This document shows positions 37,555-52,449 of a DNA stretch of 64,000 nucleotides, one piece after another. A program made the translations under genes and the position numbers. The notes beneath the pieces were generated by a model. That model was not told the DNA's origin, ran no database searches, and saw only the letters and a list, made by a program, of their open reading frames with translations. This DNA is from Candidatus Poseidoniaceae archaeon (GTDB lineage Archaea > Thermoplasmatota > Poseidoniia > Poseidoniales > Poseidoniaceae), in contig CASIAW010000005.1 in NCBI GenBank assembly GCA_949372875.1, positions 98,586 through 162,585 on the forward strand, written 5' to 3'. The first letter of the stretch is position 1, and each line of letters opens with the position of its first letter.

Positions 37555-40500
37555 ATGAAGATTCAAACGCTGTTAATCGTATTGATGCTAACACTTTCTG
37601 GTTGCCTTGGACTCAATGATGCTGGTGAGGAAATCGACCCTGATGATAAATTTCCGAATGATACTGCGGCTTTTTACGATACCGACAACGACGGGTTGCC
37701 TGACGAACTTGATGGCCCATCAACCTCCAACCCTCCATTGATTGCTGATAGTGACGATGATAACGATGGTTTCCCTGATTCAATGGAACTCTCATGTGGA
37801 ACGAATCCGCTATTGGATACATCTTTCCCTGACGACCTTGATGGAGACTTTGAATGCGATGACCAAGATTTCGATATCGATGGAGACGGTATTTTCAACT
37901 CAGCTGATGCCTTCCCCTTGGATGCGACCGCAACTACAGACACTGACGGCGATGGAATGCCTGATACGGTAACTGGTGAATCAACCCTCACAGAAGATAC
38001 CGATGATGACAATGACGGGTGGTCTGATGAAGTTGAAACTGAATGTGGCAGCAATTCCCTGGTTGCTTCACTCACCCCAATAGATGAAAACGGCGACGGT
38101 GTATGTGATTCTGTTTCAACCGATGACGATGGAGATACATATTCTGATGACGAAGAAACACTGTGTGGTTCTGACCCACTTGACGCTTTGAGCATTCCTT
38201 CTGACCTTGACGGCGACTCTATCTGCGATGCACTGGATGAGGACGTCGATGGCGATGGAGTCTCCAACGCACAAGACATGTATCCTAGCGACGCGAGTAA
38301 ACATGAAGATGTGCCCGGATGTATTGATGAAAATGCTTTCAACCACGACATTGGTTCAAACCTCGATGATGGTTCTTGCTTTGGCCCCGAAGAAGCACAT
38401 TCCATGATGTCCGAATTTATGGAAAGCGGTACATGGCACTTTACTACAGAGCAACAAGAAGAGATGGATGAAGGCGAGTTTTATCTGATTCAATCCCTCT
38501 TTGTCAATGATGCTGAGAATGATACAACACTGATTAGTCAAGTGGTCTTGGACGATTCCGGGGAAGAAATGTTCAGCATCAGCTTATTGGCTAAAGATGG
38601 CATCATTGAACTGCATCAATATGCTGATGTTTATTTGGAAGAAGAAGGCCAAACCATTACCATGGATGATGCAGTGCTCATTCACGACCAAATTATGACG
38701 AGTCCTTTCATGGAAGAGAGTGAAACGTGGTATCATTGTGAACAAGATGTGAGCAGTGTATGGTTCTGCTCGAGTTCCTATTTCTTTACCGTGGGTGAAG
38801 AAATTTCTCTCTTCGACTGCGATGATGGAAGTCAGATATATATCTCTCAAGTCAACGATGGCATGACTGACTGCGCAAATGATGAAGACGAACCGAAGTA
38901 TGATGAAACAGAATACAGCGAATTTGAGTGCGACACTGGCGAATATATCTACCTCTCTGAAGTCAATGATGGAAGTCCTGATTGTCCGGCAGGCGATGAT
39001 GAACCAACTTATGACCCAATTACACAGGAAGAAACCTCTAATTTCGAATGTTATGATGGCAGTACAATCCCCCTTTCTTGGGTGAATGATGGAACATATG
39101 ATTGTCCTTACCAGGCTGATGAACCATACTATGAATCTGAAGAAACTTCCGAATTTGATTGTAATGATGAAGTAGATACAATTGCACTTTCCTGGGTCAA
39201 CGATGGATACGAAGACTGCCAAGACGGTTCTGATGAATCAGAGTATAGCGATGCCACTGGCAATGCAGACAGTGCAACAGATACTCTTCACCTGTTTACA
39301 TGTGATGATGGAACTATGATTTTAGCAGAGTATGCTAACGATGACAACAACGATTGTTCTGACGGTTCTGACGAAGCACAAAGTACAGAAGCGACAACGT
39401 ATGAATGTAAGAATGGTGAAGTAATTGACTTTAGCCTTGTCAACGATCAATCAAAGGATTGTACTGATGGTTCTGATGAACAATATGACTTCCAATGCGA
39501 GAATGGAAATTCCATTCCGCTCTCATATGTGAACAATGGATACTCGTACTGTGAAGATGGTTCTGACGAACCTGAGTATGAGGAAGGTGAAGAACTTTCG
39601 ATGTATGATTGCGCTGATGGAAGTCAAGTTTTCCTTTCAACGGTGAACGATGGAAATGATGACTGTAGTGATGGAACTGACGAAAACCCTACGCATCTTG
39701 ATTATGTTGAACTGGTATACTTCTCATGTGAAGAAACTGATTCCGAAATTCCTCTCAGCCTCGTGAACAATGGGGAAGAAGATTGTCAAGATGGTTCCGA
39801 TGAAGCGGAATATGACAGTATGGGTAATGAAATCTCTGAGTATTACTGTGAAGATCCAACGACTTTCGACGAAGAAGATGAAACAGTAATCAACCTCAGT
39901 CAAGTGAATGATGGTACAGAGGACTGTGCTTTTAGCTGGGATGAATGGACATATGTGAGTGAAAACTGGTTCGGAATGGAACGTGATAATGAAGAAGAGT
40001 TGAACGGTGATTGCCAAATTGATGGCGAGGATTTCTTTGTCCCATGGGTCTTCGTGAACGATGGTGATGATGACTGTGATAACGGCGATGATGAACCATC
40101 TTACGACAGTTCTGGCATGGAGACTTCAACAATGACATGCTGGAGTGGCGATATTATTGCACTTTCTTTGGCCAACGATGGCAACAACGATTGTCCCGAC
40201 GGAGATGATGAAATACTCTACATGTATGTGGTTATACTTGAAGGACAAAGCAGTTCTGGAGAAAACTGGTCCTGCATCATACCCTTTGAATACCTCAATG
40301 ATGGAGATGGAGATTGTCAAGGGTACGCCGATGAACCTGAGTATGATAATGGAGAAGAACTTACTTTCTTCGAGTGTGATGATGGAACCCAAATATATCT
40401 CTCTCAAGCAAATGATGGCCTGGCTGACTGCGCAAATGGAGAAGATGAGCCTACGTGGGAAGAAGTAGAATACTCTGAATTTGAATGCAATACTGGCGAT

Positions 40501-42339
40501 TACATCTACCTCTCTAAAGTCAATGACGGAAGTCCAGATTGTCCGGCAGGCGATGACGAACCAACATATGACCCCATAACACAAGAAGAAACTTCAACTT
40601 ACGAATGCTCTTATGATGGCAGTACAATTCCTCTTTCTCAGGTGAGTGATGGAACCTATGATTGCCCTTATGGAGAAGATGAACCGTATACAGAGGAGGA
40701 GGATACTTCTGAATATGAGTGCGCTGATGGTGCGTATACAGTTCCGACCTCCTACATAAATGATCGATATGAAGACTGTGATGATGGTTCCGATGAACCC
40801 GAGTATGACCTCGAGGAAATCAGTGTATTCACATGCAATGATGGAATTGAAATCCCATTGTCTTCGGTAAACGATGATTTCAGTGATTGCTCTGATGGAA
40901 GTGATGAGCCAAATAATTTCGAATGTCTCGATGGTTCATCTCTCTCATGGTACTGGGTAAATGATGGATATGAAGACTGTCAAGATGGTTCTGATGAATC
41001 CGATATTGATTATGTAGGAAACTATGTTTGTCAAGATGGAAATGAAATTCCAATGCAGAATCTTAGAGATGAGTATGCGGATTGTAATGACGGGTCGGAT
41101 GAAATCTACTTCGATGATACTTTTGAAGAATGTGACTGGGATATCGACGATAATATGTGGGCATGCTCTGGAAGTCCAATGCCCGATGGTACATGGAGTT
41201 GGGTCATTGAGAGCGACGGTAGTTGGGCAATTACCTTAGAGCAATCTTACGATACATACTTGATCCTCATTACTCCGGAAATGACCATCAAATCGGTCAC
41301 CAATTACTTCGAAGATGACGACAACTCAGAGACGTATACTGCCGGTCTTGGTGGACATGTTATGTCCCTCAACATGGAACTTAGCGATGCTGCTCCTCCG
41401 TTTATGGTATATTTCGAAGGTATTCCAATTTCCTCAGGCGATGATACTTTCGAATGTGACGATGGGGCATTCATTGCCTTCTCATCCATTAACGACGGAA
41501 ATGAAGATTGCTCTGAAGGTGAAGATGAGCCTCAATACGAACAAAATGAAATTTCCGAGTGGAAATGCGTCACAGGTGAAGATGATGAATGGCTTTGGCT
41601 CTCTCAGGTATCTGATGGCACTCAGAATTGTCTCGATAATTCTGACGAGGACATAACGGCACTCTTTGAGTGTAATGACGGTTCAACAATTACCATCGAG
41701 ATGGTAAGCGATGGAACGAACGATTGTGCAAATGCGGAGGATGAGCCTACGTATGAACAAGGAGATCAAGAGGTTTCTGAGTTTGATTGTTATGATGGTG
41801 AAGAGATTATTCGACTTTCTTGGGTGAATGACGGATATGCTGATTGTGAAGACGGCTCAGATGAAAATCTTGGTGAAGGACATGGACATGGCATGTATGG
41901 AGTATCAACTCTCGGTTTTTCTTCAGAAATGGAAATCATTGAATGGAACGGTGGCTCTCTCACCGACTCAACGAGTGCTGACGGAATGGACCTCGTTCTT
42001 TCAATGTGTGATTCCTTTTCCCACCAGTTCACCGACGAATACATGCTTGTTTCCGAATGTGGTGCTGATGTTCAGCGATGGTCTCTTGCAGATATTTTTG
42101 CAGGGCAAGTTACTGGAATTGAATTTTATGATACTGATGAAAGTGGAACACTCACCGATGGTGACATGTTTGAAATTACTGAAGATCTTGACAATAACCT
42201 CGAATGGAATGCTGTTCGCCTAGCGAAAGGTTCTGCCTACGCAGATGAGAATCCTGAAGTTGTTCTTCCTGGTTTCACAGCTGCTCTTGGCATTATCTCA
42301 ATGCTTGGAGCTGCTCTTCTTGTCCGCAAGAACGAGTGA
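37555..42339 (+). CDS. Giant (1594 aa) acidic surface lipoprotein. Lipobox signal peptide, thrombospondin-type-3-like Asp repeats, about 24 tandem LDL-receptor-class-A-like calcium-cage modules, C-terminal PGF-CTERM archaeosortase sorting signal.
   Basis: MKIQTLLIVLMLTLSGC (lipobox). DTDNDGLPDELD, DSDDDNDGFPD, DTDGDGMPD (TSP3-like DxDxDG). Repeated modules of about 45 aa with consensus [FY]xCxDGSxIxLSxVNDGxxDCxDGSDEPxY. C-terminus LPGFTAALGIISMLGAALLVRKNE (PGF + TM + basic). Confidence 0.85.
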   Translation: MKIQTLLIVLMLTLSGCLGLNDAGEEIDPDDKFPNDTAAFYDTDNDGLPDELDGPSTSNPPLIADSDDDNDGFPDSMELSCGTNPLLDTSFPDDLDGDFECDDQDFDIDGDGIFNSADAFPLDATATTDTDGDGMPDTVTGESTLTEDTDDDNDGWSDEVETECGSNSLVASLTPIDENGDGVCDSVSTDDDGDTYSDDEETLCGSDPLDALSIPSDLDGDSICDALDEDVDGDGVSNAQDMYPSDASKHEDVPGCIDENAFNHDIGSNLDDGSCFGPEEAHSMMSEFMESGTWHFTTEQQEEMDEGEFYLIQSLFVNDAENDTTLISQVVLDDSGEEMFSISLLAKDGIIELHQYADVYLEEEGQTITMDDAVLIHDQIMTSPFMEESETWYHCEQDVSSVWFCSSSYFFTVGEEISLFDCDDGSQIYISQVNDGMTDCANDEDEPKYDETEYSEFECDTGEYIYLSEVNDGSPDCPAGDDEPTYDPITQEETSNFECYDGSTIPLSWVNDGTYDCPYQADEPYYESEETSEFDCNDEVDTIALSWVNDGYEDCQDGSDESEYSDATGNADSATDTLHLFTCDDGTMILAEYANDDNNDCSDGSDEAQSTEATTYECKNGEVIDFSLVNDQSKDCTDGSDEQYDFQCENGNSIPLSYVNNGYSYCEDGSDEPEYEEGEELSMYDCADGSQVFLSTVNDGNDDCSDGTDENPTHLDYVELVYFSCEETDSEIPLSLVNNGEEDCQDGSDEAEYDSMGNEISEYYCEDPTTFDEEDETVINLSQVNDGTEDCAFSWDEWTYVSENWFGMERDNEEELNGDCQIDGEDFFVPWVFVNDGDDDCDNGDDEPSYDSSGMETSTMTCWSGDIIALSLANDGNNDCPDGDDEILYMYVVILEGQSSSGENWSCIIPFEYLNDGDGDCQGYADEPEYDNGEELTFFECDDGTQIYLSQANDGLADCANGEDEPTWEEVEYSEFECNTGDYIYLSKVNDGSPDCPAGDDEPTYDPITQEETSTYECSYDGSTIPLSQVSDGTYDCPYGEDEPYTEEEDTSEYECADGAYTVPTSYINDRYEDCDDGSDEPEYDLEEISVFTCNDGIEIPLSSVNDDFSDCSDGSDEPNNFECLDGSSLSWYWVNDGYEDCQDGSDESDIDYVGNYVCQDGNEIPMQNLRDEYADCNDGSDEIYFDDTFEECDWDIDDNMWACSGSPMPDGTWSWVIESDGSWAITLEQSYDTYLILITPEMTIKSVTNYFEDDDNSETYTAGLGGHVMSLNMELSDAAPPFMVYFEGIPISSGDDTFECDDGAFIAFSSINDGNEDCSEGEDEPQYEQNEISEWKCVTGEDDEWLWLSQVSDGTQNCLDNSDEDITALFECNDGSTITIEMVSDGTNDCANAEDEPTYEQGDQEVSEFDCYDGEEIIRLSWVNDGYADCEDGSDENLGEGHGHGMYGVSTLGFSSEMEIIEWNGGSLTDSTSADGMDLVLSMCDSFSHQFTDEYMLVSECGADVQRWSLADIFAGQVTGIEFYDTDESGTLTDGDMFEITEDLDNNLEWNAVRLAKGSAYADENPEVVLPGFTAALGIISMLGAALLVRKNE

Positions 42340-42364: not shown

Positions 42365-45016
42365 TTAGGACACGAGAGGGTTGGAAACGTATGGCTTTGA
42401 GTCTGTACGTTGAGCCTTAAGGTTGTGAAGAAGAATCGCAGCGCTTGCAGAGAAGATTTGAACAAGAGCGAAAAACGCTTGCCAGGTTAACATGAAGATT
42501 AGTCTTGGATAAGTAGGAGAATATGCATAGAGGCAAAGACATCCCAAAACAAGGAGAGATTGTGCGAGAATAAATGGCATTAGCGGAATCTCTTGTTCTT
42601 GTATGAACATCATCATGACGCACGACGCAATCAAGAGAGGACTTGCAATCATCAAGATCATCCATCCGGTTGAAGGGCTGTTACCAGCTGCGAAATAGCC
42701 TCCTTGAACTGCTACTGCGCCCGGGTCTAATTCTCTTGGGTGTGGACAAATCCCTTCAAAACAGGTTTGAATTCCATTAACTTGACCATAAAGAGTCCAC
42801 CAGAGCAACCACATCAACCAAGGTAACATGGCATAGAACAACCAAAGCCACTGTTGCGATGATTGCCTTCGTTCAAGTCCAGTCCATTTTTTCAAGGCAG
42901 AAACAATTGTTGGGGTGGATGCTAACAAGACGGTAATACAACAAGCAGCCCATGGCCCCCATGAGACCAAAGTATGCAATGCAACTGCATGGATGGTGTG
43001 CATCTTCGAATATTCTCGATTCTCACCGAAAAATGAGTGATGTATAGCAAGCCCATACCCAGCGAGAACAAGGATGAGCATCAATCGCTCAAGAGGGTCA
43101 TAACCGATTTCACGAACGATTACGCCAAGTACGAGTGCTATCCCAAAAAATGTGGTCGCTCGATGCTCATCTTTGGGTAATACGGTGTTTTTCACTACGA
43201 GGAGCATCCAAATGATGAGAAGGCCCGTTAGCAAAAAACCACCTATGCTGACGGCACTCAAATTAATCAGATCTAACATGTAATGCCTTCCAAACAAACG
43301 ACGATGGACCAGAACGATAGCCGATAATGTCAGAGCAAACACTGACAGAAGAGGTATCATAGATTCCTTTGTGCGTTCTGTATCTTTCTCAAGAAGAATT
43401 CCTCCAAGGATGTAATACCAAGGTATGAGGAAAAACCAAAGACGCAGTCCTCCGATACTGATGAGGACAACTGCAAACAGAATGAAAAGGTAATTTCGCT
43501 CTTTCTCATCACTTCTCCAATGTCCCGAGAATGCAAGAACAGAGACGGCAAGCAAGGCGAACATAGCGCTTTGCACCATAGCTTGCGTGAGCGTTCCTTG
43601 GAATACTACTAACGCAAGGAGAGTCAAACCTACGAGGCTCCAAAAACTGGGTTCAAACTTTTTCCATTTAATCGACGTGTTTGGAGCACGACCAAGCGCT
43701 GAGCTTACCAACCAAACCGCACCAAGTGCGCCGAGTCCACGCGGAATCATAGCAGAATAAGCAAGGTTTGCTTGAAAATACATCAATACAAAGCCAAACA
43801 AACCAATACCGCCAAGCTTGATTAATTCGTCTCTTTGAGTCATTTTATTGGCTCCAAACGCATAAGCAACTCCGGCGAGGAGAATGAGTAAAGTGAGAAT
43901 GGATACAATCACATCCAATGTCCTCACTTGAATCGGTTCAGTTTCGATTGATTCCCAATCAACAACCGTTTCTGACAACATGTCTTTGTCTTGAGGATAA
44001 TAAAACACGTGTCTGTTATATCCAGCCTTCCAATTCCATTGCTCCAACGTTGAAATTTCAGAGGATGTGTGGTCCAACATCGCAAGAGGAATCCTTCCTT
44101 GCAGTTGGTTAGGGAAATCGAGAAGCAGTGTGGAGACCATGAATGCGGCGATATCTGGCTGTTTGATGTCAGACCATACTCCAGTATTCACATGCGGTCC
44201 AGAAATAATAGCAGCGACTTCTTGAGTGACTTTTTCAGCAGAACCGTGGGTTCCTGCATCGGTCATGCCGTGATCGGCAGTTATGACAACAGTCCAATCA
44301 GGCGGCACTGTTCGTAAGAGTCGGTCCACTGTCAGGTCAATGGAGAGGAGTTTCTGCCTGTATTCATCGGTTTGAATCCCCCAATGATGGCCGACTTTAT
44401 CCGGTCCAGAAAAGTGTGCAGCAATGACGTTATGTTCTCCGTTTTGAAGCCATTGTGCGGCTACAGTTTCTGTTTCTTCATCGCCTTGATAGTAGTCGCT
44501 ATGGCCTTTGAAAGTATCAACAAAACTGATATTTGGCATACCTTGGTAGATATTCCCCATCACATAGCTTCCAACCATGCCTACAGAATACCTCTCATCT
44601 TGGGATGCGAGAGTCCATGGATCATTGCCACCTGGGTGGCCAAGATTGAAGTTGTTTAATCCATCAATCGGCCTGTTTGGAACTCCAGTCATCAATTCAC
44701 TGATGCATGTCGCAGACAGCGTAAGTGGGCCTGTTTGGATGTTTAATACAGCAGCCGTTTGTTTGTGACTGTTCAGGTTCGGCATGGATTTTTCATCCAG
44801 CATCAATTCTCTTCCAACACCATCCAAAATGATGAGCAGAAATCCTTCGTTTTGACTGATTATGCTCACCGCATCGACTTCTCCAGGTGGAGTGTCTGTG
44901 TCCAGCAAGACATAAGGAGCGGTAATGAACGCTGGAATGAGCATTAAAGCGAGTAGAAAATACAACCACCGTGTTGGAGGTGAACTGTACAGTTCAGCGC
45001 TTTGCGTTGATTCCAT
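42365..45016 (-). CDS. Alkaline-phosphatase-superfamily (type I phosphodiesterase / phosphotransferase) domain fused to a C-terminal polytopic membrane domain. Architecture resembles eukaryotic GPI ethanolamine-phosphate transferases (PigN/PigO-like).
   Basis: N-terminal TM, then FLLIILDGVGRE (metal-binding Asp), GPDKVGHHWG, VVITADHGMTDAGTHGS (AlkP-core His/Asp). After about aa 380 there are at least 12 hydrophobic helices. 883 aa. Confidence 0.55.
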   Translation of the reverse strand: MESTQSAELYSSPPTRWLYFLLALMLIPAFITAPYVLLDTDTPPGEVDAVSIISQNEGFLLIILDGVGRELMLDEKSMPNLNSHKQTAAVLNIQTGPLTLSATCISELMTGVPNRPIDGLNNFNLGHPGGNDPWTLASQDERYSVGMVGSYVMGNIYQGMPNISFVDTFKGHSDYYQGDEETETVAAQWLQNGEHNVIAAHFSGPDKVGHHWGIQTDEYRQKLLSIDLTVDRLLRTVPPDWTVVITADHGMTDAGTHGSAEKVTQEVAAIISGPHVNTGVWSDIKQPDIAAFMVSTLLLDFPNQLQGRIPLAMLDHTSSEISTLEQWNWKAGYNRHVFYYPQDKDMLSETVVDWESIETEPIQVRTLDVIVSILTLLILLAGVAYAFGANKMTQRDELIKLGGIGLFGFVLMYFQANLAYSAMIPRGLGALGAVWLVSSALGRAPNTSIKWKKFEPSFWSLVGLTLLALVVFQGTLTQAMVQSAMFALLAVSVLAFSGHWRSDEKERNYLFILFAVVLISIGGLRLWFFLIPWYYILGGILLEKDTERTKESMIPLLSVFALTLSAIVLVHRRLFGRHYMLDLINLSAVSIGGFLLTGLLIIWMLLVVKNTVLPKDEHRATTFFGIALVLGVIVREIGYDPLERLMLILVLAGYGLAIHHSFFGENREYSKMHTIHAVALHTLVSWGPWAACCITVLLASTPTIVSALKKWTGLERRQSSQQWLWLFYAMLPWLMWLLWWTLYGQVNGIQTCFEGICPHPRELDPGAVAVQGGYFAAGNSPSTGWMILMIASPLLIASCVMMMFIQEQEIPLMPFILAQSLLVLGCLCLYAYSPTYPRLIFMLTWQAFFALVQIFSASAAILLHNLKAQRTDSKPYVSNPLVS

Positions 45017-45145: not shown

Positions 45146-46297
45146 TCAACTGTAGGTTCCAATGTCATCAGAGGTGATGCCATAGTGAGCCCAGACATGC
45201 TCGAGGTGAGCAGTAACGTCGTAGGAGGTTCCAAGTTGAGTAGCGTCTTGAAGGTTCAAGATCTCGTTGATTTTGTCTGCACCGTAGTGTCCATCAAAGG
45301 TTTCGTTTGCTGCGTCACAAGCGGATGCATCAGAGTTTCCGACATAAGTTACGTTTCCGTCAGTGTGGATACATGCATTGGTGTGAGCAGCCGAGTATGC
45401 TTCGATTGCCTTCCAGAATGCATATCCTTCAACTTGATACTTCTCGCCGGACTCGTTGCTGTCCATCTTCGAAGTGTACTTGAGAACTGCTTGGGAGTAT
45501 GTAATGACGAGGTTCTTGACAACGGTGTCTGCTGCTGCAGTGTATCCAGCAGAGTCTCCTGCTTGGAGTGCTGCAAGTCCGTCAACCATTGCGGTTTGAG
45601 AAGCAGTGAGAGCGTTTGAGACGCCATTGGTTTCTGTGCCAAAGTCAGCAGCGCGCTTTTCCATTACCTTAGCAGGAGAGCAGCCGTAGTCTTCATCAGG
45701 TCCGTGGAAGAATGCCCATCCTTCGTCCCAGTTGTGTGGAGCGCCGGAGTCGTTGTCGACGTTTCCAGCATCTGCCTTTGCAATTGCTGAGTTCAACTCG
45801 TGAATAGTGTAAGCAACCATTCCCATGTTAACGGTCAACTTTGCAATACCTTGGTATCGAACGGTGTCAGAAACACCAGCGAAGTCGCCTGTGCCGTCCA
45901 TTGCAGCCATGATGTGGTCATCGACTGAACCGGATGCGTCGTAGTATGCATCGTAGCCGTGGTTCTTACCATCAGCAGACGCAAAGCCAGCGAGTGTGCG
46001 GTAAGAGCCATCGCTTTTTTCTGCATTCTTGCCGTTCATGTAGATGTCCTTTGCAGTTGCGAAGTCGTAGCCGCCATCAGAGCTAGCTGCGGTCTTCATG
46101 TCGCAAAGGTCCTTCATGAGAGAGCGGTGGTTGTCAACATTTGATGCATAGGTGTAGCCACCATCTTCAGCATCCATTGCAACGACCGAATCTGCTGCGT
46201 CCGTCGTTTCGTCTTCTTCTGATGCCAAGCAGCCTGCTAATCCAGAAACTGCCATCAATGCAATCAATACTAATCCTTTCAATTTTGTGTGGTTCAT
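45146..46297 (-). CDS. Secreted lipoprotein of unknown function (DGGY/DGSY-repeat containing)
   Basis: Lipobox MNHTKLKGLVLIALMAVSGLAGC. Repeated ...DGGYTYA..., ...DGGYDFA..., ...DGSYRTLAGF... 383 aa. Confidence 0.6.
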   Translation of the reverse strand: MNHTKLKGLVLIALMAVSGLAGCLASEEDETTDAADSVVAMDAEDGGYTYASNVDNHRSLMKDLCDMKTAASSDGGYDFATAKDIYMNGKNAEKSDGSYRTLAGFASADGKNHGYDAYYDASGSVDDHIMAAMDGTGDFAGVSDTVRYQGIAKLTVNMGMVAYTIHELNSAIAKADAGNVDNDSGAPHNWDEGWAFFHGPDEDYGCSPAKVMEKRAADFGTETNGVSNALTASQTAMVDGLAALQAGDSAGYTAAADTVVKNLVITYSQAVLKYTSKMDSNESGEKYQVEGYAFWKAIEAYSAAHTNACIHTDGNVTYVGNSDASACDAANETFDGHYGADKINEILNLQDATQLGTSYDVTAHLEHVWAHYGITSDDIGTYS

Positions 46298-46492: not shown

Positions 46493-46918
46493 TCAGCAAC
46501 AGCCTTCATCACGCATGGGGGCGCTGATGAAAGTAACCTTATCGACATTGGCAGTATTCTGGAGTTGCTCAATAACCGAACGATAGTGAGATGCCTTTCC
46601 AATGCCTTGGATCACATCGACACACGAATGGCTATGTTTGAGACAGCTGTGGTTGTATGAAGTAATCTCAAGTTCACCGGAGTGACGTAAATCGATAAGT
46701 TTATGCTCATTTCCGTGTTGATAGTAGATGACTAAGTGACCTTCAACGACTGTATCATCATCCATATCTGCTAACTCTCCTCTCTGTTGTATTTCAGCAA
46801 AAAGTAAAGCAGCATCTCGAATGAAGCGACTTCGGTTTTGATATCCTGATTTTTTGATTAAGTCTTCAAAGTCCTCGGCAAATTTTTTATCAGCACTAAA
46901 CGAAATGATTTGGCTCAT
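46493..46918 (-). CDS. nikR: NikR-like metal-responsive transcriptional regulator (N-terminal ribbon-helix-helix + C-terminal ACT-like metal-binding domain)
   Basis: N-terminal DKKFAEDFEDLIKKSGYQNRSRFIRDAALLF resembles the NikR RHH region (...LDxLxxxRGYxNRSEAIRD...). C-terminal domain has HLVIYYQHGNEH and HSCLKHSHSCVDV, His/Cys clusters placed like the NikR high-affinity metal site. 141 aa. Confidence 0.6.
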   Translation of the reverse strand: MSQIISFSADKKFAEDFEDLIKKSGYQNRSRFIRDAALLFAEIQQRGELADMDDDTVVEGHLVIYYQHGNEHKLIDLRHSGELEITSYNHSCLKHSHSCVDVIQGIGKASHYRSVIEQLQNTANVDKVTFISAPMRDEGCC

Positions 46919-47006: not shown

Positions 47007-50000
47007 ATGAACAACAACCGTATGAGAGTCGTTTTCGTAAGCCTGATTATGATTTTTTCAAGCCTTGCTGGATGTATTGGCGATGAAGAATTGGAAGCTA
47101 TTGAAGAGGCCACTGACCTCTTGAATGATGCAACAAACTCCACAATGGATGGCAACAATACCACAACCATTGGGATGTTGGGATCCGTAATGGTTTCAAC
47201 ATACCACGTCGGAGAACTCGTCAAAGCAATCGCTGGCGAACATGTCGACATGGAATACATGAGTCTTGACAACATCCCCGTCCACGATTACGAACCATCT
47301 GCATCGGATCTCATCCGACTTCAGAACTCTGACGTTTTCTTCTACCACGGACTAGGACTCGAACCCTGGGTCGATGCAACGCTTGACTCCTTGGGTAACG
47401 ATGCTCCAACAGCCGTTCAAGTTCACACCATGCCTAGTGGGGAAGAGACCCTCGATTATGAATCGTTACTCGTCTCTGATTTGTGCAAAACTCTCTTAGA
47501 AGGGCCATACGAAACCGTTGAACTTGTTGATGAAGAAGAGCACGCTGATGATGTTAAAATCCTAGCTGAATACATGGCGCATAACATCACATTCCCTCAC
47601 GAAGAGCATGACGACCATGCTGATGAAGAAGGTGACCATGATGACCACGCTGAGGAAGAAGACGGGCATGACGGCCATGCTGATGAAGAAGGCAACCATT
47701 CAGAAGAAGGTCACGAAGACCACGACGCTCATGATGATGGCCACGAAGGCCATGCCCACCTTGTTGCTGAACAAACTCTTTCCAACCCTGCAGGATGTCC
47801 TGCTGACACAATGATTTCCATATTCCACCTCGAAGAAGGGGAATACATCATTGAATTCGATGCAGAACATGCAGATGATTTCACAATGGCAGTTCTCAAG
47901 ATGCTTGGCGGTCACGCACACCACGACCATGGTGACCACGGTGACGAACACGGAGATGAACATGATGACCATGATGGTCATGGTGACGAACACTTCGTTT
48001 GCCACGATATGACAACTCACGAAAACACCAACCACACCACTGAGGAAGAATGTGTAGCCGCAGGCCACATGTGGATGAAAGAAGACGGTCACGACGACCA
48101 TGAAGGCGACTACTGCCACGATACAACAACTCACGAAAACACCAACCATACCACTGAGGAAGAATGTGTTGCCGCAGGCCACACGTGGATGGAAGAAGCC
48201 GATCACGATGACCATGATGGCCACGACGACCATGATGGCCACGACGACCATGACGACCACGATGGCCATGACGACCACGATGGCCATGACGACCCGTGCG
48301 CCGACCACTATGACCACGACGACCATGATGACCACGGAGATCACATGACTGCAGAAGAAGCGCTTGAAGAAGCCGATTCAAACAACGACAGTCTCCTTTC
48401 TTGGGATGAATTCTGGGATTCCTGGAACGACGATGGGCACGATGACCATGACGACCATGACGACCATGATGAAGAACATCACGGCGTCTTCGTATTATTC
48501 CCTGACAACTGCATGCTCATGTATGCTGCTGAAGACGATATGCTGCCTGAAAACGCAACTGGATGGAACCTCACAACATCTGCAATGATGGGAGATGACA
48601 CACTCGAGCTCAATTACTCCGTTCATGAAACATACGGCACTAGTGTCAGTGGAATCAACGGATTTATGGCTCCAGAAGATTATTCCTGGTATTGGCAACT
48701 TATGCTCTGGAACGGCACAGAAAACAACACTGGCTGGGAAGTCAGCAATGTTGGTATTGACTCTGTAATGATTCCTGAAATGACAGAACACGTCGCTTGG
48801 ATGCCAAATTCCTCGGACATGTCATATTTGCCAGACCTCAGTATGATGCATGATGACCATGATGACCATGATGACCATGATGGCCATGATGACTTCGAAA
48901 GAACATTCCACTGCAGTTCTACCGTTGGTGGCACTCCAGACACAGAAATTCCGTTCTCTCAAGTGAACGATGGCACTGAAGACTGTGGCGATGGTTCCGA
49001 TGAGCCTCAAGACTTTGACGGTGATGGTATTGTTGACAACTGGTTCGACTGCATGGATGGTTCAAATGTGTCCATGGAATTCGTTAACGACGGATATGAT
49101 GACTGCCCTGATGGTGATGATGAATCTCACGATGATGACCACAGTGACAATGAAGGAGCGCCAACGCCTCAAGAATTTATCAATATGACTGATACTGACG
49201 GAAATGGAACAATGAGCTTTGATGAATTCATTGCATTCATGAATTCACCTGATCCTGACGGTGAACATGAAGATGATGATGAGTCATTGCCACAATCTAT
49301 GGTTGACGAACTCAGAGTAATATTCGATAACAACGATGCAGATCAGTCCGGAGAGTTAGATCTCGATGAACTCGACCAATTTATCATTGACACGGATGAG
49401 TACTTTATGTCAATGGATGGCGGTGATGGCGAACCGACTCAAGAGGAACTCCAGTTCCTCTTCAACGCATCCGATGCAGACGGCGACCAATTGTTGAACG
49501 TTACCGAACTTGGTGCATTCATGGAAATGCTCGAAGACCTCATGGAAGATGACCACCATGATGATCACGACGACCATGACAATCACGACGACCATGACGA
49601 CCACGGCGACGATAACCACGCTGACGAAGAAGATCACCATCCTGTCGGCTATGTGACCCTTCACGTTAATGCTGAAGGCGACTATGGTTTCGCTCTACCT
49701 ATGGATGTTGAATTCCACATCATGATGGCCGAAGGCGGCCATGACGACCATGCTGGCCATGATGATCACGACGACCATGATGACCATGCTGGAGAAGAAG
49801 GCGACCATGCTGAAGAAGAAGGCGACCATGATGACCACGCTGATGAAGAAGGTAACCATACTGATGAAGAAGGTGACCATGATGACCACGCTGACGAAGA
49901 AGGAGCTCTCGATTATGACCCTCACAGCTGGCTTAGCCCACTTGCTTTCAAGGCACAAGTGAATGTTGTTCTCGACGGACTAACCACTGCTTTCCCTGCT

Positions 50001-50447
50001 GGAGAAGCAGTCTTCAAGGTAAACGCTGAGGCATATGCTGCTCAATTAACAGCTCTTGACGTTTCATTTGACGCTGCCTTCGGAGAAGGCGGCCAATGCA
50101 TGGCTGGAGGTCAACAAAAGACTGTGGCTTCAAACCACAACGCTTACTCCTACATCGCAGTTGAATACGGAATCCAATTCATGACCGTTCACGGACTTGA
50201 CCCAGAAGGAGAACCATCTCCTGAAGATGTCGCTAAGGTTGTTAACTTCATCAAGGAAGAAGGAATCACTGTTCTGTTTGTTGAAGAATACACCGACCAA
50301 TCTTCAGTGCAAAGCATTGTTGATGAAACAGGTGTGTCGATTCAAATCCTTTACACCATGGAAATGGCACCAAGCGATTCTGATGACAATTACATGACAA
50401 TGATGACCAAGAACCTTGCAAACCTCGTAGCCGGTATCGGATGCTGA
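47007..50447 (+). CDS. znuA: ZnuA/TroA-family (cluster-9) metal-binding lipoprotein with an interlobe His/Asp/Glu-rich loop hyper-expanded to about 800 aa, containing EF-hand-like and LDLa-like calcium-binding modules
   Basis: Lipobox MNNNRMRVVFVSLIMIFSSLAGC. N-lobe motif ...DNIPVHDYEPSASDLIRLQNSDVFFYHGLGLEPWV... C-lobe DPHSWLSPLAF...ASNHNAYSYIAVEYGIQ...EPSPEDVAKVVNFIKEEGITVLFVEE... (TroA-like). Between them are HDDHDGHDDHDDHDG-type runs, DTDGNGTMSFDEF / DNNDADQSGELDLDEL / DADGDQLLNVTEL (EF-hand DxDxDG...E loops) and two VNDGxxDCxDGSDE modules. Confidence 0.85.
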   Translation: MNNNRMRVVFVSLIMIFSSLAGCIGDEELEAIEEATDLLNDATNSTMDGNNTTTIGMLGSVMVSTYHVGELVKAIAGEHVDMEYMSLDNIPVHDYEPSASDLIRLQNSDVFFYHGLGLEPWVDATLDSLGNDAPTAVQVHTMPSGEETLDYESLLVSDLCKTLLEGPYETVELVDEEEHADDVKILAEYMAHNITFPHEEHDDHADEEGDHDDHAEEEDGHDGHADEEGNHSEEGHEDHDAHDDGHEGHAHLVAEQTLSNPAGCPADTMISIFHLEEGEYIIEFDAEHADDFTMAVLKMLGGHAHHDHGDHGDEHGDEHDDHDGHGDEHFVCHDMTTHENTNHTTEEECVAAGHMWMKEDGHDDHEGDYCHDTTTHENTNHTTEEECVAAGHTWMEEADHDDHDGHDDHDGHDDHDDHDGHDDHDGHDDPCADHYDHDDHDDHGDHMTAEEALEEADSNNDSLLSWDEFWDSWNDDGHDDHDDHDDHDEEHHGVFVLFPDNCMLMYAAEDDMLPENATGWNLTTSAMMGDDTLELNYSVHETYGTSVSGINGFMAPEDYSWYWQLMLWNGTENNTGWEVSNVGIDSVMIPEMTEHVAWMPNSSDMSYLPDLSMMHDDHDDHDDHDGHDDFERTFHCSSTVGGTPDTEIPFSQVNDGTEDCGDGSDEPQDFDGDGIVDNWFDCMDGSNVSMEFVNDGYDDCPDGDDESHDDDHSDNEGAPTPQEFINMTDTDGNGTMSFDEFIAFMNSPDPDGEHEDDDESLPQSMVDELRVIFDNNDADQSGELDLDELDQFIIDTDEYFMSMDGGDGEPTQEELQFLFNASDADGDQLLNVTELGAFMEMLEDLMEDDHHDDHDDHDNHDDHDDHGDDNHADEEDHHPVGYVTLHVNAEGDYGFALPMDVEFHIMMAEGGHDDHAGHDDHDDHDDHAGEEGDHAEEEGDHDDHADEEGNHTDEEGDHDDHADEEGALDYDPHSWLSPLAFKAQVNVVLDGLTTAFPAGEAVFKVNAEAYAAQLTALDVSFDAAFGEGGQCMAGGQQKTVASNHNAYSYIAVEYGIQFMTVHGLDPEGEPSPEDVAKVVNFIKEEGITVLFVEEYTDQSSVQSIVDETGVSIQILYTMEMAPSDSDDNYMTMMTKNLANLVAGIGC

Positions 50448-50502
50448 TTGTAAGAACTTGATTTCGCAAACATAACCATGAACTGAAGAGAAGGTGAAAG
50501 AC

Positions 50503-50622
50503 GTGCACCTTGTAGATACACTTCCAATCATCGTTGTTTCAACGGTGTTCGTTGCCTTTTTTGGCTACTTACTGGTTGAATCTTTCTGGGCTACATACTC
50601 CAGTCAAGACGATTTTTCGTGA
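50503..50622 (+). CDS. Possible small (39 aa) single-TM membrane protein between the ZnuA-like and ZnuC genes (GTG start). Speculative.
   Basis: Manual translation gives VHLVDTLPIIVVSTVFVAFFGYLLVESFWATYSSQDDFS*. Hydrophobic core of about 20 residues. Below the 60-aa ORF-track cutoff. Confidence 0.2.
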   Translation: MHLVDTLPIIVVSTVFVAFFGYLLVESFWATYSSQDDFS

Positions 50623-50671: not shown

Positions 50672-51535
50672 ATGGTAGTGCTTAATATGCAACCTCCAGC
50701 CGATAACAAAGTGATGGAAGAAGCGGCTGCAATCCTAAAAATAAAGGATTTGACCGTAAGCCGTTCCGGAAAAGTGGTTATCCACGACATCAATCTAAGC
50801 GTACGTAAAGGCGAATTTATCGGTTTAGTTGGACCCAATGGTAGCGGTAAGTCAACGCTTCTTCTGTCCATTCTTGGCGTTTTGAGAGCCCAGCAAGGCT
50901 CTATTCAGATATATGGTCAAAAACCAATGTCAAGAAGCATTCTGGGTAAAATTGGCTGGGTCTCTCAAGCTGCAGCGGTCATGCCGAAGAACGTGAGAAT
51001 TACAGTTCGAGAACTCGTCCAACTAGGTACCTTAAACTCGAGGAATATGTTTTGGCGAAGAAAGGGAATCCATCGTGAAAAAGTGGACCAGGCAATGAAA
51101 ATGGTTGGATTAGAAGGGGTTGCAGACAATGACATAGCGCGACTTTCAGGAGGGCAGCGTCAGCGTGCTGTTATTGGTCGTGCTCTTGCATCCGATGCAC
51201 AATTTATCTTGTTGGATGAACCTCTCGTGGGTATTGACCGAGAATCTCGAAACTCGTTACTCAAGTTATTAGACAAGCTCTGCCATGATGAAAATAAAAC
51301 TATCCTGATGGTCTCACACGATCTCGCTGCGATTCGTCAAACCGCTCACCGTATGATTTATCTTGAAGAATCTATACGATTTGACGGGCTAACTGAAGAC
51401 TTCCCTGACCTTACAACCCTTGCTGGATTACGCGGCATTGAACCAGTGCATGGTCATAGCCATGACAAAAATATTCCGAAATCAATTGTTCTTGGGACTG
51501 AGAAGAATGAACATTCCAATAAGGAGGAAGAATAA
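50672..51535 (+). CDS. znuC: ABC transporter ATP-binding protein (ZnuC/TroB-like, metal-type ABC)
   Basis: Walker A GPNGSGKSTLL, ABC signature LSGGQRQRAVIGRAL, Walker B FILLDEP, H-loop MVSHDL. Confidence 0.85.
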   Translation: MVVLNMQPPADNKVMEEAAAILKIKDLTVSRSGKVVIHDINLSVRKGEFIGLVGPNGSGKSTLLLSILGVLRAQQGSIQIYGQKPMSRSILGKIGWVSQAAAVMPKNVRITVRELVQLGTLNSRNMFWRRKGIHREKVDQAMKMVGLEGVADNDIARLSGGQRQRAVIGRALASDAQFILLDEPLVGIDRESRNSLLKLLDKLCHDENKTILMVSHDLAAIRQTAHRMIYLEESIRFDGLTEDFPDLTTLAGLRGIEPVHGHSHDKNIPKSIVLGTEKNEHSNKEEE

Positions 51536-52449
51536 TGGGAATAGGAATGACGATTTTAGAACTCGTTGCTCCAGTACTCGAGTTTATCGCACCAATGGTT
51601 CCTGGAGAGATTTTTCCATATTTCTTTACTATGGAAATGTTTCAACGTGCTCTTTTGGCAGCGATCATGGTCACGATGGTTGCTGGTGTACTTGGCTCCT
51701 TTTTGCTGATTCGAAACCTCGCCCTTATCGGGGACGGTTTGGCTCACGTATCCTTTGGTGGGGTAGCTGTTGGTGTGGTATTGGGGGCCACTTCCCCCCT
51801 CTGGTATGCACTGGTATTCAGCGTAATTTCTGCAGTTATTATTCACGAAATGCAAACCAGAGAATTGCTAACTGGTGATGCCTCAATCGCTATTTTCTTA
51901 ACTGGAATGCTCGCTTTAGGTCTCGTTGTTCTTCGAGTATTTGGTGGAGGAATAACGAGCGATATCGAGGGATATCTGTTCGGAAGTTTACTTCTCATTG
52001 ACGAGAAGAGTCTTGACATGATTGCTAGCATCAGTATATTCTCACTTCTTTCCCTCTTAATGCTCTATTCTGGATTACTTTCGACGACCATTGATCCACT
52101 TGCTGCTCGTGTTCAGGGACTTCCAGTTCGAGCAATTGGACTCGTGTTTAGCATCATCACTGCTGCTGTAGTTGTGAGTATGGTTCAAGTTATTGGGGCT
52201 TTACTCGTAACCGCGTTACTGGTCACTCCAGCTGCAACCGCCCAACTGGTAGGGCGTAGTTTCCGTTCCTGTTTAATTTGGACTCAAGTTTTTGGAATGT
52301 CTGCTATTTTCATTGGGCTGTATCTCTCAGCAGAGCACGACTCGGGTAGTGGAGCAATGATTGCTTTAGTTGCGGCTTCGATATTTGCAACAGTGGCAAT
52401 CTTAAAAACTGTAATTCTGGGTTTGATTAAGCCAAATCAAAACCTCTAA
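51535..52449 (+). CDS. znuB: ABC-3 family metal-transport permease (ZnuB/TroC-like)
   Basis: 304 aa, about 8-9 TM helices. Start codon overlaps the znuC stop (ATAATGGG). ABC-3-like hydrophobic profile. Confidence 0.85.
   Translation: MGIGMTILELVAPVLEFIAPMVPGEIFPYFFTMEMFQRALLAAIMVTMVAGVLGSFLLIRNLALIGDGLAHVSFGGVAVGVVLGATSPLWYALVFSVISAVIIHEMQTRELLTGDASIAIFLTGMLALGLVVLRVFGGGITSDIEGYLFGSLLLIDEKSLDMIASISIFSLLSLLMLYSGLLSTTIDPLAARVQGLPVRAIGLVFSIITAAVVVSMVQVIGALLVTALLVTPAATAQLVGRSFRSCLIWTQVFGMSAIFIGLYLSAEHDSGSGAMIALVAASIFATVAILKTVILGLIKPNQNL

Follow-up and report, generated by a model that had tools for sequence, protein, structure and literature searches.

Reduced-cysteine LDLa modules in the expanded loop of a ZnuA-like lipoprotein and in a neighbouring surface protein of a Poseidoniaceae archaeon

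Introduction

The window analysed here is a stretch of 64,000 nucleotides (nt) from a Candidatus Poseidoniaceae archaeon (NCBI GenBank assembly GCA_949372875.1, contig CASIAW010000005.1, positions 98,586 to 162,585 of the forward strand). It encodes a ZnuA-like lipoprotein and, upstream of it, a giant surface protein that carries an array of 24 short two-cysteine modules (Table 1). We analysed two segments within the ZnuA-like protein which an earlier note on this DNA, made from the letters alone, had assigned to the same module family and had explained by domain shuffling between the two genes. The two segments, termed module A and module B, are separated by a short linker, and we refer to the whole as the cassette. 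As genes for an ATP-binding cassette (ABC) ATPase and an ABC-3 permease lie directly downstream of the ZnuA-like gene, the ZnuABC-type operon is complete.

Table 1. Features of the locus, with positions in the window (aa, amino acids)
Feature	Position (nt)	Strand	Description
Giant surface-protein gene	37555..42339	+	1594 aa; lipobox LSGC, bacterial TSP3 repeats, 24 reduced-cysteine LDLa modules, PGF-CTERM signal
24-module array	38800..41874	+	consensus xxSxFxCxDGxxIxLSxVNDGxxDCxDGxDEPxY
Membrane-protein gene	42365-45016	-	883 aa, polytopic; separates the giant surface-protein gene from the metal-related genes
Fea1-like gene	45146..46297	-	low-iron-inducible periplasmic protein family; Pfam Fea1 107.5 bits
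NikR-like gene	46493..46918	-	ribbon-helix-helix (RHH) regulator; NikR_C 22.0 bits, RHH_1 21.7 bits
ZnuA-like gene	47007..50447	+	1146-aa lipoprotein, lipobox LAGC; zinc-type cluster A-I substrate-binding protein (ZnuA/AdcA-like)
Loop insertion	47532..49901	+	aa ~176-965, ~790 aa
Tandem 2-Cys repeats	47994-48191		aa 330-395; CHDxTTHENTNHTTEEECVAAGHxW, two copies
Segment of ~120 aa	48480-48842		aa 492-612; hydrophobic core (GVFVLFPDNC...EHVAWMPNSSD); directly 5' of the cassette
Module A	48906..49007	+	aa 634-667, FHCSSTVGGTPDTEIPFSQVNDGTEDCGDGSDEP; reduced-cysteine LDLa type, Cys636 and Cys660
Linker	49008..49043	+	aa 668-679, QDFDGDGIVDNW; acidic DxDxDG-type loop (DFDGDGIVDNW)
Module B	49044..49124	+	aa 680-706, FDCMDGSNVSMEFVNDGYDDCPDGDDE; reduced-cysteine LDLa type, Cys682 and Cys700
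EF-hand region	49173..49544	+	aa 723-846, directly 3' of the cassette; Pfam EF-hand_7 48.9 bits, EF-hand_1 36.9 bits
Micro-ORF	50494..50622	+	42 aa, single transmembrane segment, MKDVHLVDTLPIIVVSTVFVAFFGYLLVESFWATYSSQDDFS; between the ZnuA-like and ATPase genes
ABC ATPase gene	50672..51535	+	Pfam ABC_tran 110.6 bits
ABC-3 permease gene	51535..52449	+	Pfam ABC-3 200.3 bits

Results

The ZnuA-like lipoprotein and its expanded loop

The ZnuA-like protein matches the Pfam family ZnuA (PF01297) with 144.7 bits in two stretches, exceeding the threshold of 29, and these stretches outline an N-terminal lobe (aa ~57-175) and a C-terminal lobe (aa ~966-1146). Its best solved relative is the zinc protein AdcA (7jj8, E 1.5e-38), whose HEYEPS, DPHVW, H..F and LE motifs align with H93, H973, H1044 and E1119. 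We take these four residues to be the zinc ligands (the His3Glu set). The NCBIfam equivalog cut-offs were missed both for AztC (121.7 vs 350) and for ZnuA (PRK09545, 43.6 vs 268), and therefore no specific equivalog can be assigned.

Since the junction of the two lobes aligns with the His-rich GDHDHGEEGHHH loop of AdcA, just before the DPHxWLSP motif, the insertion of ~790 aa found there corresponds to a hyper-expanded His-rich loop. Insertions at this position, 298-785 aa in length, are present in all 120 best Poseidoniales ZnuA homologues. His-rich loops as described for ZnuA have a few tens of residues. What the loop of the window has in common with the AdcA/ZnuA type is its position and its richness in His/Asp runs, whereas its length, its folded and predicted Ca2+-binding domains (two LDLa modules and at least five EF-hands), its Cys-repeats and a domain of ~120 aa set it apart. 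From its N-terminal end the loop consists of His/Asp runs, two 2-Cys repeats, an EF-hand and the ~120-aa domain, followed by the two LDLa modules with their linker, four EF-hands and more His/Asp runs. Overall the protein contains 102 His, 194 Asp and 122 Glu (316 Asp+Glu), and 16 Lys+Arg.

Some parts of the loop have no recognizable relatives in Pfam. Nothing significant was found there for the 2-Cys repeats or for aa 250-307, and the ~120-aa segment gave no Pfam match even at E<=1. The 2-Cys repeats are homologous to the VCYDMSTHTVDDSYDNQADCEsAGLMW repeats of His-rich PGF-CTERM lipoproteins encoded at four related loci (L004, L005, L008 and L019). They possibly represent a new small module that is either metal-related or held by a disulfide.

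The loop and the giant protein share a two-cysteine module

Both peptides that the earlier note had quoted are present letter for letter in the translation of the open reading frame (ORF) 47007..50447 (+). The quoted stretch begins with FHCSS...DGDG at aa 634 (nt 48906) and ends with FDCMDG...HDDDH at aa 712 (nt 49142). The span of 48886-49140 given for them is right within about 20 nt but out of frame, the in-frame span being 48906-49142. A regular expression for the module recovers exactly 24 copies in ORF 37555..42339 (+) and two in the ZnuA-like ORF.

We then built a profile hidden Markov model (HMM) from the 24 modules only and scanned the 1210 six-frame ORFs of the window. Module A scores 41.2 bits (independent E-value 6e-12) and module B 36.0 bits (3e-10), the 24 source modules score 26-57 bits each against their own HMM, and the next best ORF reaches 4.3 bits. 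The alignment of module A is limited to HMM positions 8-31, because this module carries a 6-residue insertion, TVGGTP, between its first Cys and the core. As a control the whole loop was shuffled 2000 times and aa 601-760 were shuffled 5000 times. Among the 6,688 shuffles with a scored match the best domain score was 8.7 bits, and hence the HMM match is not due to the acidic composition of the loop. An origin of the likeness in low complexity or compositional convergence was rejected, since the shuffles reach 8.7 bits as compared to 41.2 and 36.0 bits for the modules. Thus, the claim that the giant protein and the ZnuA-like loop contain the same two-cysteine module is confirmed, and the profile of the large protein does recover both segments above noise, the outcome on which the earlier note had let this claim depend.

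The modules are LDLa domains with a reduced set of cysteines

The giant protein matches the Pfam families Ldl_recept_a (229.7 bits, E 2.4e-69, 15 stretches; threshold 24.1), PRKCSH-like (PF12999; 61.1 bits, above the gathering threshold of 34.9) and TSP3_bac (33). When the 24-module profile was compared with all PDB sequences, LRP2, LDLR, VLDLR, ApoER2, CD320 and enteropeptidase were matched, and the best single-stretch match among those listed was the beta subunit of glucosidase II (GIIbeta; 55 bits, E 4.4e-14). A phmmer search of the PDB with the ZnuA modules retrieved LRP2 (E 2.6e-10) and GIIbeta (E 1.4e-7); with the cassette plus the EF-hand region as the query, the PDB matches were dominated by calmodulin.

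LDLa (LDL-receptor class A, also called the complement-type repeat) is a textbook ligand-binding domain of animals and is held together by three disulfides with the connectivity C1-C3, C2-C5 and C4-C6. In the HMMER alignments the F-x-C of the archaeal modules falls on F-x-Cys2 of LDLa, their D-C falls on D-Cys5 and the Asn of VNDG on Cys4, a position that is occupied by Asn or Ser throughout, and LDLa Cys1, Cys3 and Cys6 are without counterpart. Because the two remaining cysteines align with Cys2 and Cys5, they correspond to one native LDLa disulfide pair. The modules are like LDLa of the LDLR type (PF00057; LDLR LA5 1ajj, LRP2, VLDLR) in length class, in the F-x-C...I...D-G-x-x-D-C-x-D-G-S-D-E register, in the acidic cage and in predicted fold. 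They differ in having two cysteines (Cys2 and Cys5, with Asn for Cys4) instead of the canonical six and in belonging to archaeal proteins that are anchored by a lipobox or PGF-CTERM; moreover, the copies in the ZnuA-like protein score below the Pfam threshold.

The ZnuA pair also resembles the G2B domain of GIIbeta (PF12999; 5f0e_B, 5hjo_B), which likewise consists of tandem LDLa-like modules with the pattern VNDD/VNDG..DC.DGSDEP and Asn at the position of Cys4 (VNDDYCDC and VNDGVCDC). Module A aligns end to end with the second LDLa-like module of GIIbeta, and the alignments of the ZnuA pair with 5f0e_B and 5hjo_B, including ATIPFDQVNDDYCDCKDGSDEP, contain the tandem pair together with this Asn. 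The LDLa pair of GIIbeta, too, precedes EF-hand-like motifs. Unlike the ZnuA pair, GIIbeta has extra cysteines (CDC and a C-terminal Cys) and is a eukaryotic protein of the endoplasmic reticulum that binds the alpha subunit.

The acidic cage is conserved over all 26 modules, with D20 and D24 at 90% or more and D30 and E31 invariant. The side-chain Ca2+ ligands of LDLR LA5 (1ajj), D196, D200, D206 and E207, map to these columns. An AlphaFold2 model of module B, calculated from the 26-module alignment, has a predicted local distance difference test score (pLDDT) of 89.6, and LDLa modules or LDLa-containing chains make up all of its 50 best Foldseek hits among PDB structures (TM score 0.68-0.87, root-mean-square deviation 0.9-2.4 A). 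The fold predicted for module B is that of LDLa, a beta-hairpin plus a Ca2+-binding loop, a prediction that depends on sequence similarity, too. A cation-binding role of the module, as had been proposed, appears well founded because the family is LDLa and the four acidic ligand positions of its Ca2+ cage are invariant or nearly so. The proposal had appealed to the co-occurrence of the module with EF-hands and His-runs. EF-hands do recur alongside the module in seven of the ten other archaeal module proteins scanned, but the His-runs are a property of the ZnuA loop and do not bear on the module as such.

The module is common in secreted proteins of Poseidoniales

A search of 1.84 billion representative proteins with the 24-module profile returned 7559 hits with E<=1e-3, of which 75 reach E<=1e-30. 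Among the best 150 of the 7559, 108 are canonical (Cys at the Cys4 position), 36 are of the reduced-cysteine type (Asn or Ser at this position) and six are mixed. The canonical proteins are up to 6000 aa long and have a Cys content of 3.4-13.1%, mostly 6-13%; for the 36 reduced-cysteine proteins it is 1.8-9.9% (median about 2.8%, mostly 2-4%). Of these 36 proteins, 25 end in a transmembrane-plus-basic tail, which in 22 cases follows a PG[FALP] motif, and 25 have a hydrophobic segment or a lipobox at the N-terminus. The expectation that all carriers are secreted, lipobox or PGF-CTERM proteins thus largely holds among these 36; the remainder, which lack such segments, are mostly short and may be fragments. 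The VNDG module family is common in secreted proteins of Poseidoniales.

The cassette recurs in unrelated host proteins

Related loci were gathered with an alignment of the cassette. The homologues bear the source names Candidatus Poseidoniaceae or Thalassarchaeum, and 66 of the 68 GTDB loci are labelled Poseidoniales, Poseidoniaceae, Poseidonia or with a broader archaeal taxon. The loci contain 16 cassette-bearing ORFs: six encode ZnuA-type proteins, eight PGF-CTERM proteins (six of them rich in His runs, two without His runs) and two other large proteins, one of which has an AHEIIH motif. A protein search with the cassette profile scored 66 candidates and gave short fragments of 72-129 aa; it missed known full-length carriers and is not to be read as a census.

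In other metagenome-assembled genomes (MAGs), both ZnuA orthologues and proteins other than ZnuA carry copies that are 84-93% identical to the cassette of the window. Among ZnuA orthologues the cassette identity is 78-88%, as compared to 43-70% for the whole proteins. No other segment of ZnuA is as well conserved as the cassette in any of the codon-level comparisons (cassette aa identity 0.88-0.93, nt identity 0.84-0.88), the metal-binding lobes having aa identities of 0.61-0.90. At third codon positions the cassette has an identity of 0.66-0.71, above the 0.50 seen between modules of the neighbour; as a codon bias in sequences rich in Asp, Glu and Gly inflates this value, we do not claim recent gene conversion. 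In an alignment of six orthologues 55 of the 83 cassette positions are invariant, including the linker residues G43, D44, G45, D48, N49 and W50 and some positions that are neither Cys nor cage ligands.

The closest copy resides in a protein other than ZnuA, a Poseidoniaceae lipoprotein (L008; 93% aa and 88% nt identity) with His/Asp runs, VCYDMSTH...C..AGLMW Cys-repeats, EF-hands and a PGF-CTERM anchor. The ZnuA loop and this protein are collinear in the order Cys-repeats, EF-hand, cassette and further EF-hands (E 6e-43 for the cassette and the following EF-hands), and their identity, 93% within the cassette, falls to 27-39% in its flanks. Apart from the ZnuA orthologues, it is mainly His-rich and EF-hand-rich PGF-CTERM lipoproteins of this kind (L004, L005, L008, L013, L019) that hold the closest copies, the cassette identity being 89-93% for L004, L005 and L008. 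They share with the ZnuA loop the CxDxSTH...C..AG.MW repeats, the EF-hands and the His/Asp runs in the same order. Unlike the ZnuA-like protein, they have a PGF-CTERM anchor and no ZnuA lobes, and outside the cassette the identity is about 25-40%. Besides these lipoproteins, the cassette occurs in L009, L010, L012, L014 and L018.

The cassette of L009 (88% identity) belongs to a Poseidoniales protein of 1235 aa (L009:7763-11467, +) with an AHEIIH motif of the HExxH type. Pfam finds only the LDLa domain in this protein, and it is a candidate metalloprotease by its motif. Two loci are labelled as bacterial, L034 (a Micrococcales MAG, 3920-aa ORF) and L065 (a Salinimicrobium MAG). They show cassette patterns with one or two modules each, and represent either Poseidoniales contigs that were misbinned or modules that are truly present in bacteria.

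Discussion

A probable Ca2+-stabilised knot in a zinc-scavenging loop

We consider it probable that the two segments are reduced-cysteine LDLa modules which form a conserved di-module cassette, that this cassette represents a lineage separate from and older than the neighbouring array, and that it has a structural role; from the conserved cage and the cysteine register we infer one bound Ca2+ and a Cys2-Cys5 disulfide per module of ~30 residues. In seawater, which contains about 10 mM Ca2+, each module would hold its Ca2+ through oxygen ligands and, together with the disulfide, would form a compact, rigid and protease-resistant knot. The linker may provide a third Ca2+ site, as its motif suggests. 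Cassette, DxDxDG linker and adjacent EF-hands would then constitute a folded, Ca2+-dependent island that organises the largely disordered, extremely acidic His/Asp tether, and it would be the His runs of this tether, not the oxygen-only modules, that capture Zn2+ for the His3Glu site. Most likely, the cassette serves as a structural knot that Ca2+ stabilises inside the zinc-scavenging loop.

Several observations weigh against this interpretation. Four of the six cysteines that define LDLa are missing from the modules, and in Pfam the ZnuA-like protein stays below threshold both for Ldl_recept_a (14.7 vs 24.1, E 0.037) and for PRKCSH-like (23.4 vs the cut-off of 34.9). The AlphaFold2 model of the 83-aa di-module, calculated from six orthologues, has a pLDDT of 43.5 and is unusable for the arrangement of the modules. 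Moreover, the cassette is found in only 6 of the 120 ZnuA homologues; these six lie scattered over the tree of the core domain, and the cassette is thus dispensable for ZnuA function as such. Finally, a structural role alone leaves unexplained why the conservation of the cassette, at 84-93%, is far above the 47% seen among generic modules.

Alternative explanations

The earlier note had read the ZnuA modules as the product of recent shuffling or gene conversion from the adjacent 24-module gene, aided by proximity. Both genes do lie on the same strand, 4.7 kb apart in the window, and their modules are of the same family. However, over a 22-aa ungapped core the average identity to the modules of the neighbour is 55% for module A and 48% for module B, and the neighbour's modules are 47% identical among themselves; the closest single modules reach 73% and 64%. 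In nucleotides the identity is at most 70%, the third-codon identity where the residues agree (0.51 for A, 0.45 for B) equals the background of 0.50 within the array, and the TVGGTP insertion of module A is found in none of the 24 neighbour modules. Other genomes, and also other protein families, hold far closer copies (84-93%). Cassette-bearing ZnuA orthologues are located at loci without a second module-bearing ORF in the flanks, and conversely about 14 loci with homologues of the giant protein (17-20 modules) have no ZnuA in flanks of 8-10 kb; looked for from both genes, the adjacency of ZnuA and a module-rich gene is seen in 0 of 70 related loci. Shuffling between the two neighbours is thus extremely unlikely and the copying of the ZnuA cassette from the neighbour is not supported, the link between the genes being their membership of one domain family. 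Domain mobility among secreted proteins of Poseidoniales does exist, with the cassette family, not the neighbour, as the exchange partner. Another explanation, that the modules themselves capture Zn2+ or Mn2+ and add to the capacity of the loop, would fit their position between the His/Asp runs of a metal-uptake protein and the Fea1-like and NikR-like genes of the locus. Yet the conserved ligand positions all offer oxygen, from carboxylates or from the backbone, and no His is conserved, the solved homologues hold Ca2+ (the title of 1ajj reads 'calcium-coordinating'), and the module also abounds in proteins that have few His runs or none, which makes this explanation very unlikely.

The high conservation of the cassette leads to a third alternative, in which it is a Ca2+-dependent docking or adaptor module that tethers different secreted proteins, namely ZnuA, the His-rich PGF-CTERM lipoproteins and the protease-like protein, to one surface partner in Poseidoniales, by a logic like that of LDLa and its ligands or of dockerins. 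Eukaryotic LDLa modules and the G2B domain are protein-binding modules, and PDB complexes are among the matches. The cassette, the most conserved part of ZnuA, keeps an identity of 84-93% in at least four host architectures that are unrelated to each other, its invariant positions extend beyond the cysteines and the cage, and generic modules of the same fold tolerate 47% identity; as the conservation of the cassette exceeds theirs, a specific interaction is favoured. On the other hand, no conserved neighbouring gene points to a partner. Canonical LDLa modules clamp a ligand lysine with an aromatic residue two positions before Cys4, which is Asn in the cassette, and this aromatic is not conserved (Q, L, K or E in module A, F or L in module B). 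Docking to one partner is possible in our view but rather unlikely. More doubtful still is its strong form, in which the cassette is a dedicated, transferable docking module that assembles a zinc-scavenging envelope complex via one common surface partner. If this were true, the complex would contain ZnuA, the 'zincophore-like' His-rich PGF-CTERM lipoproteins and the protease-like protein, the conservation of the cassette above that of the zinc-binding lobes would be explained, and, as a corollary, no other prokaryotic domain would be as closely related to the eukaryotic G2B domain of GIIbeta as the VNDG modules of these archaea.

Relation to previous work

Both the domain family and the host family have been described before, and so has the idea of a His-rich loop. 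On the occurrence of LDLa (PF00057, Ldl_recept_a) in archaea or in Marine Group II, as the Poseidoniales are also called, our literature searches yielded nothing relevant, and the one Poseidoniales paper found to mention ZnuA leaves the loop aside. In the searchable literature we found neither the one-disulfide VNDG variant of LDLa as a widespread component of the surface proteins of Poseidoniales, nor a conserved di-LDLa cassette common to ZnuA loops and His-rich PGF-CTERM lipoproteins, nor folded Ca2+ domains inside a ZnuA loop of ~790 aa. An LDLa domain with one predicted disulfide and the predicted Ca2+ cage as its only other support is a common surface building block in a very abundant archaeal group of the surface ocean, and such reduced modules are relevant to the question of how little the LDLa fold requires. 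The cassette also offers a testable handle on the long metal-scavenging tethers of uncultured archaea that live in Ca2+-rich, Zn-poor seawater.

Other features of the locus

The C-terminal sequence of the giant protein, ...LPGFTAALGIISMLGAALLVRKNE, passes the Pfam threshold for PGF-CTERM (PF18204, 23.6 vs 18.8) and misses the NCBIfam cut-off of TIGR04126 (19.9 vs 24.5). Modules 1-3 and 14-16 of its array (38800-39132 and 40357-40692) represent a recent internal three-module duplication: the pairs 2/15, 3/16 and 1/14 have nucleotide identities of 91%, 80% and 80%, as compared to an average of 54%.

The Fea1-like and NikR-like genes lie upstream of the ZnuABC-type operon and are divergent from it, and the region looks like a metal-acquisition island. 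The micro-ORF within the operon resembles genes of 38 aa and 35 aa that are found at the same position in two related loci (L001 and L002), and may encode an unannotated small transporter subunit. Finally, the polytopic membrane protein encoded next to the giant surface protein has an N-terminal domain of the phosphodiesterase/metalloenzyme type (alkaline-phosphatase superfamily).

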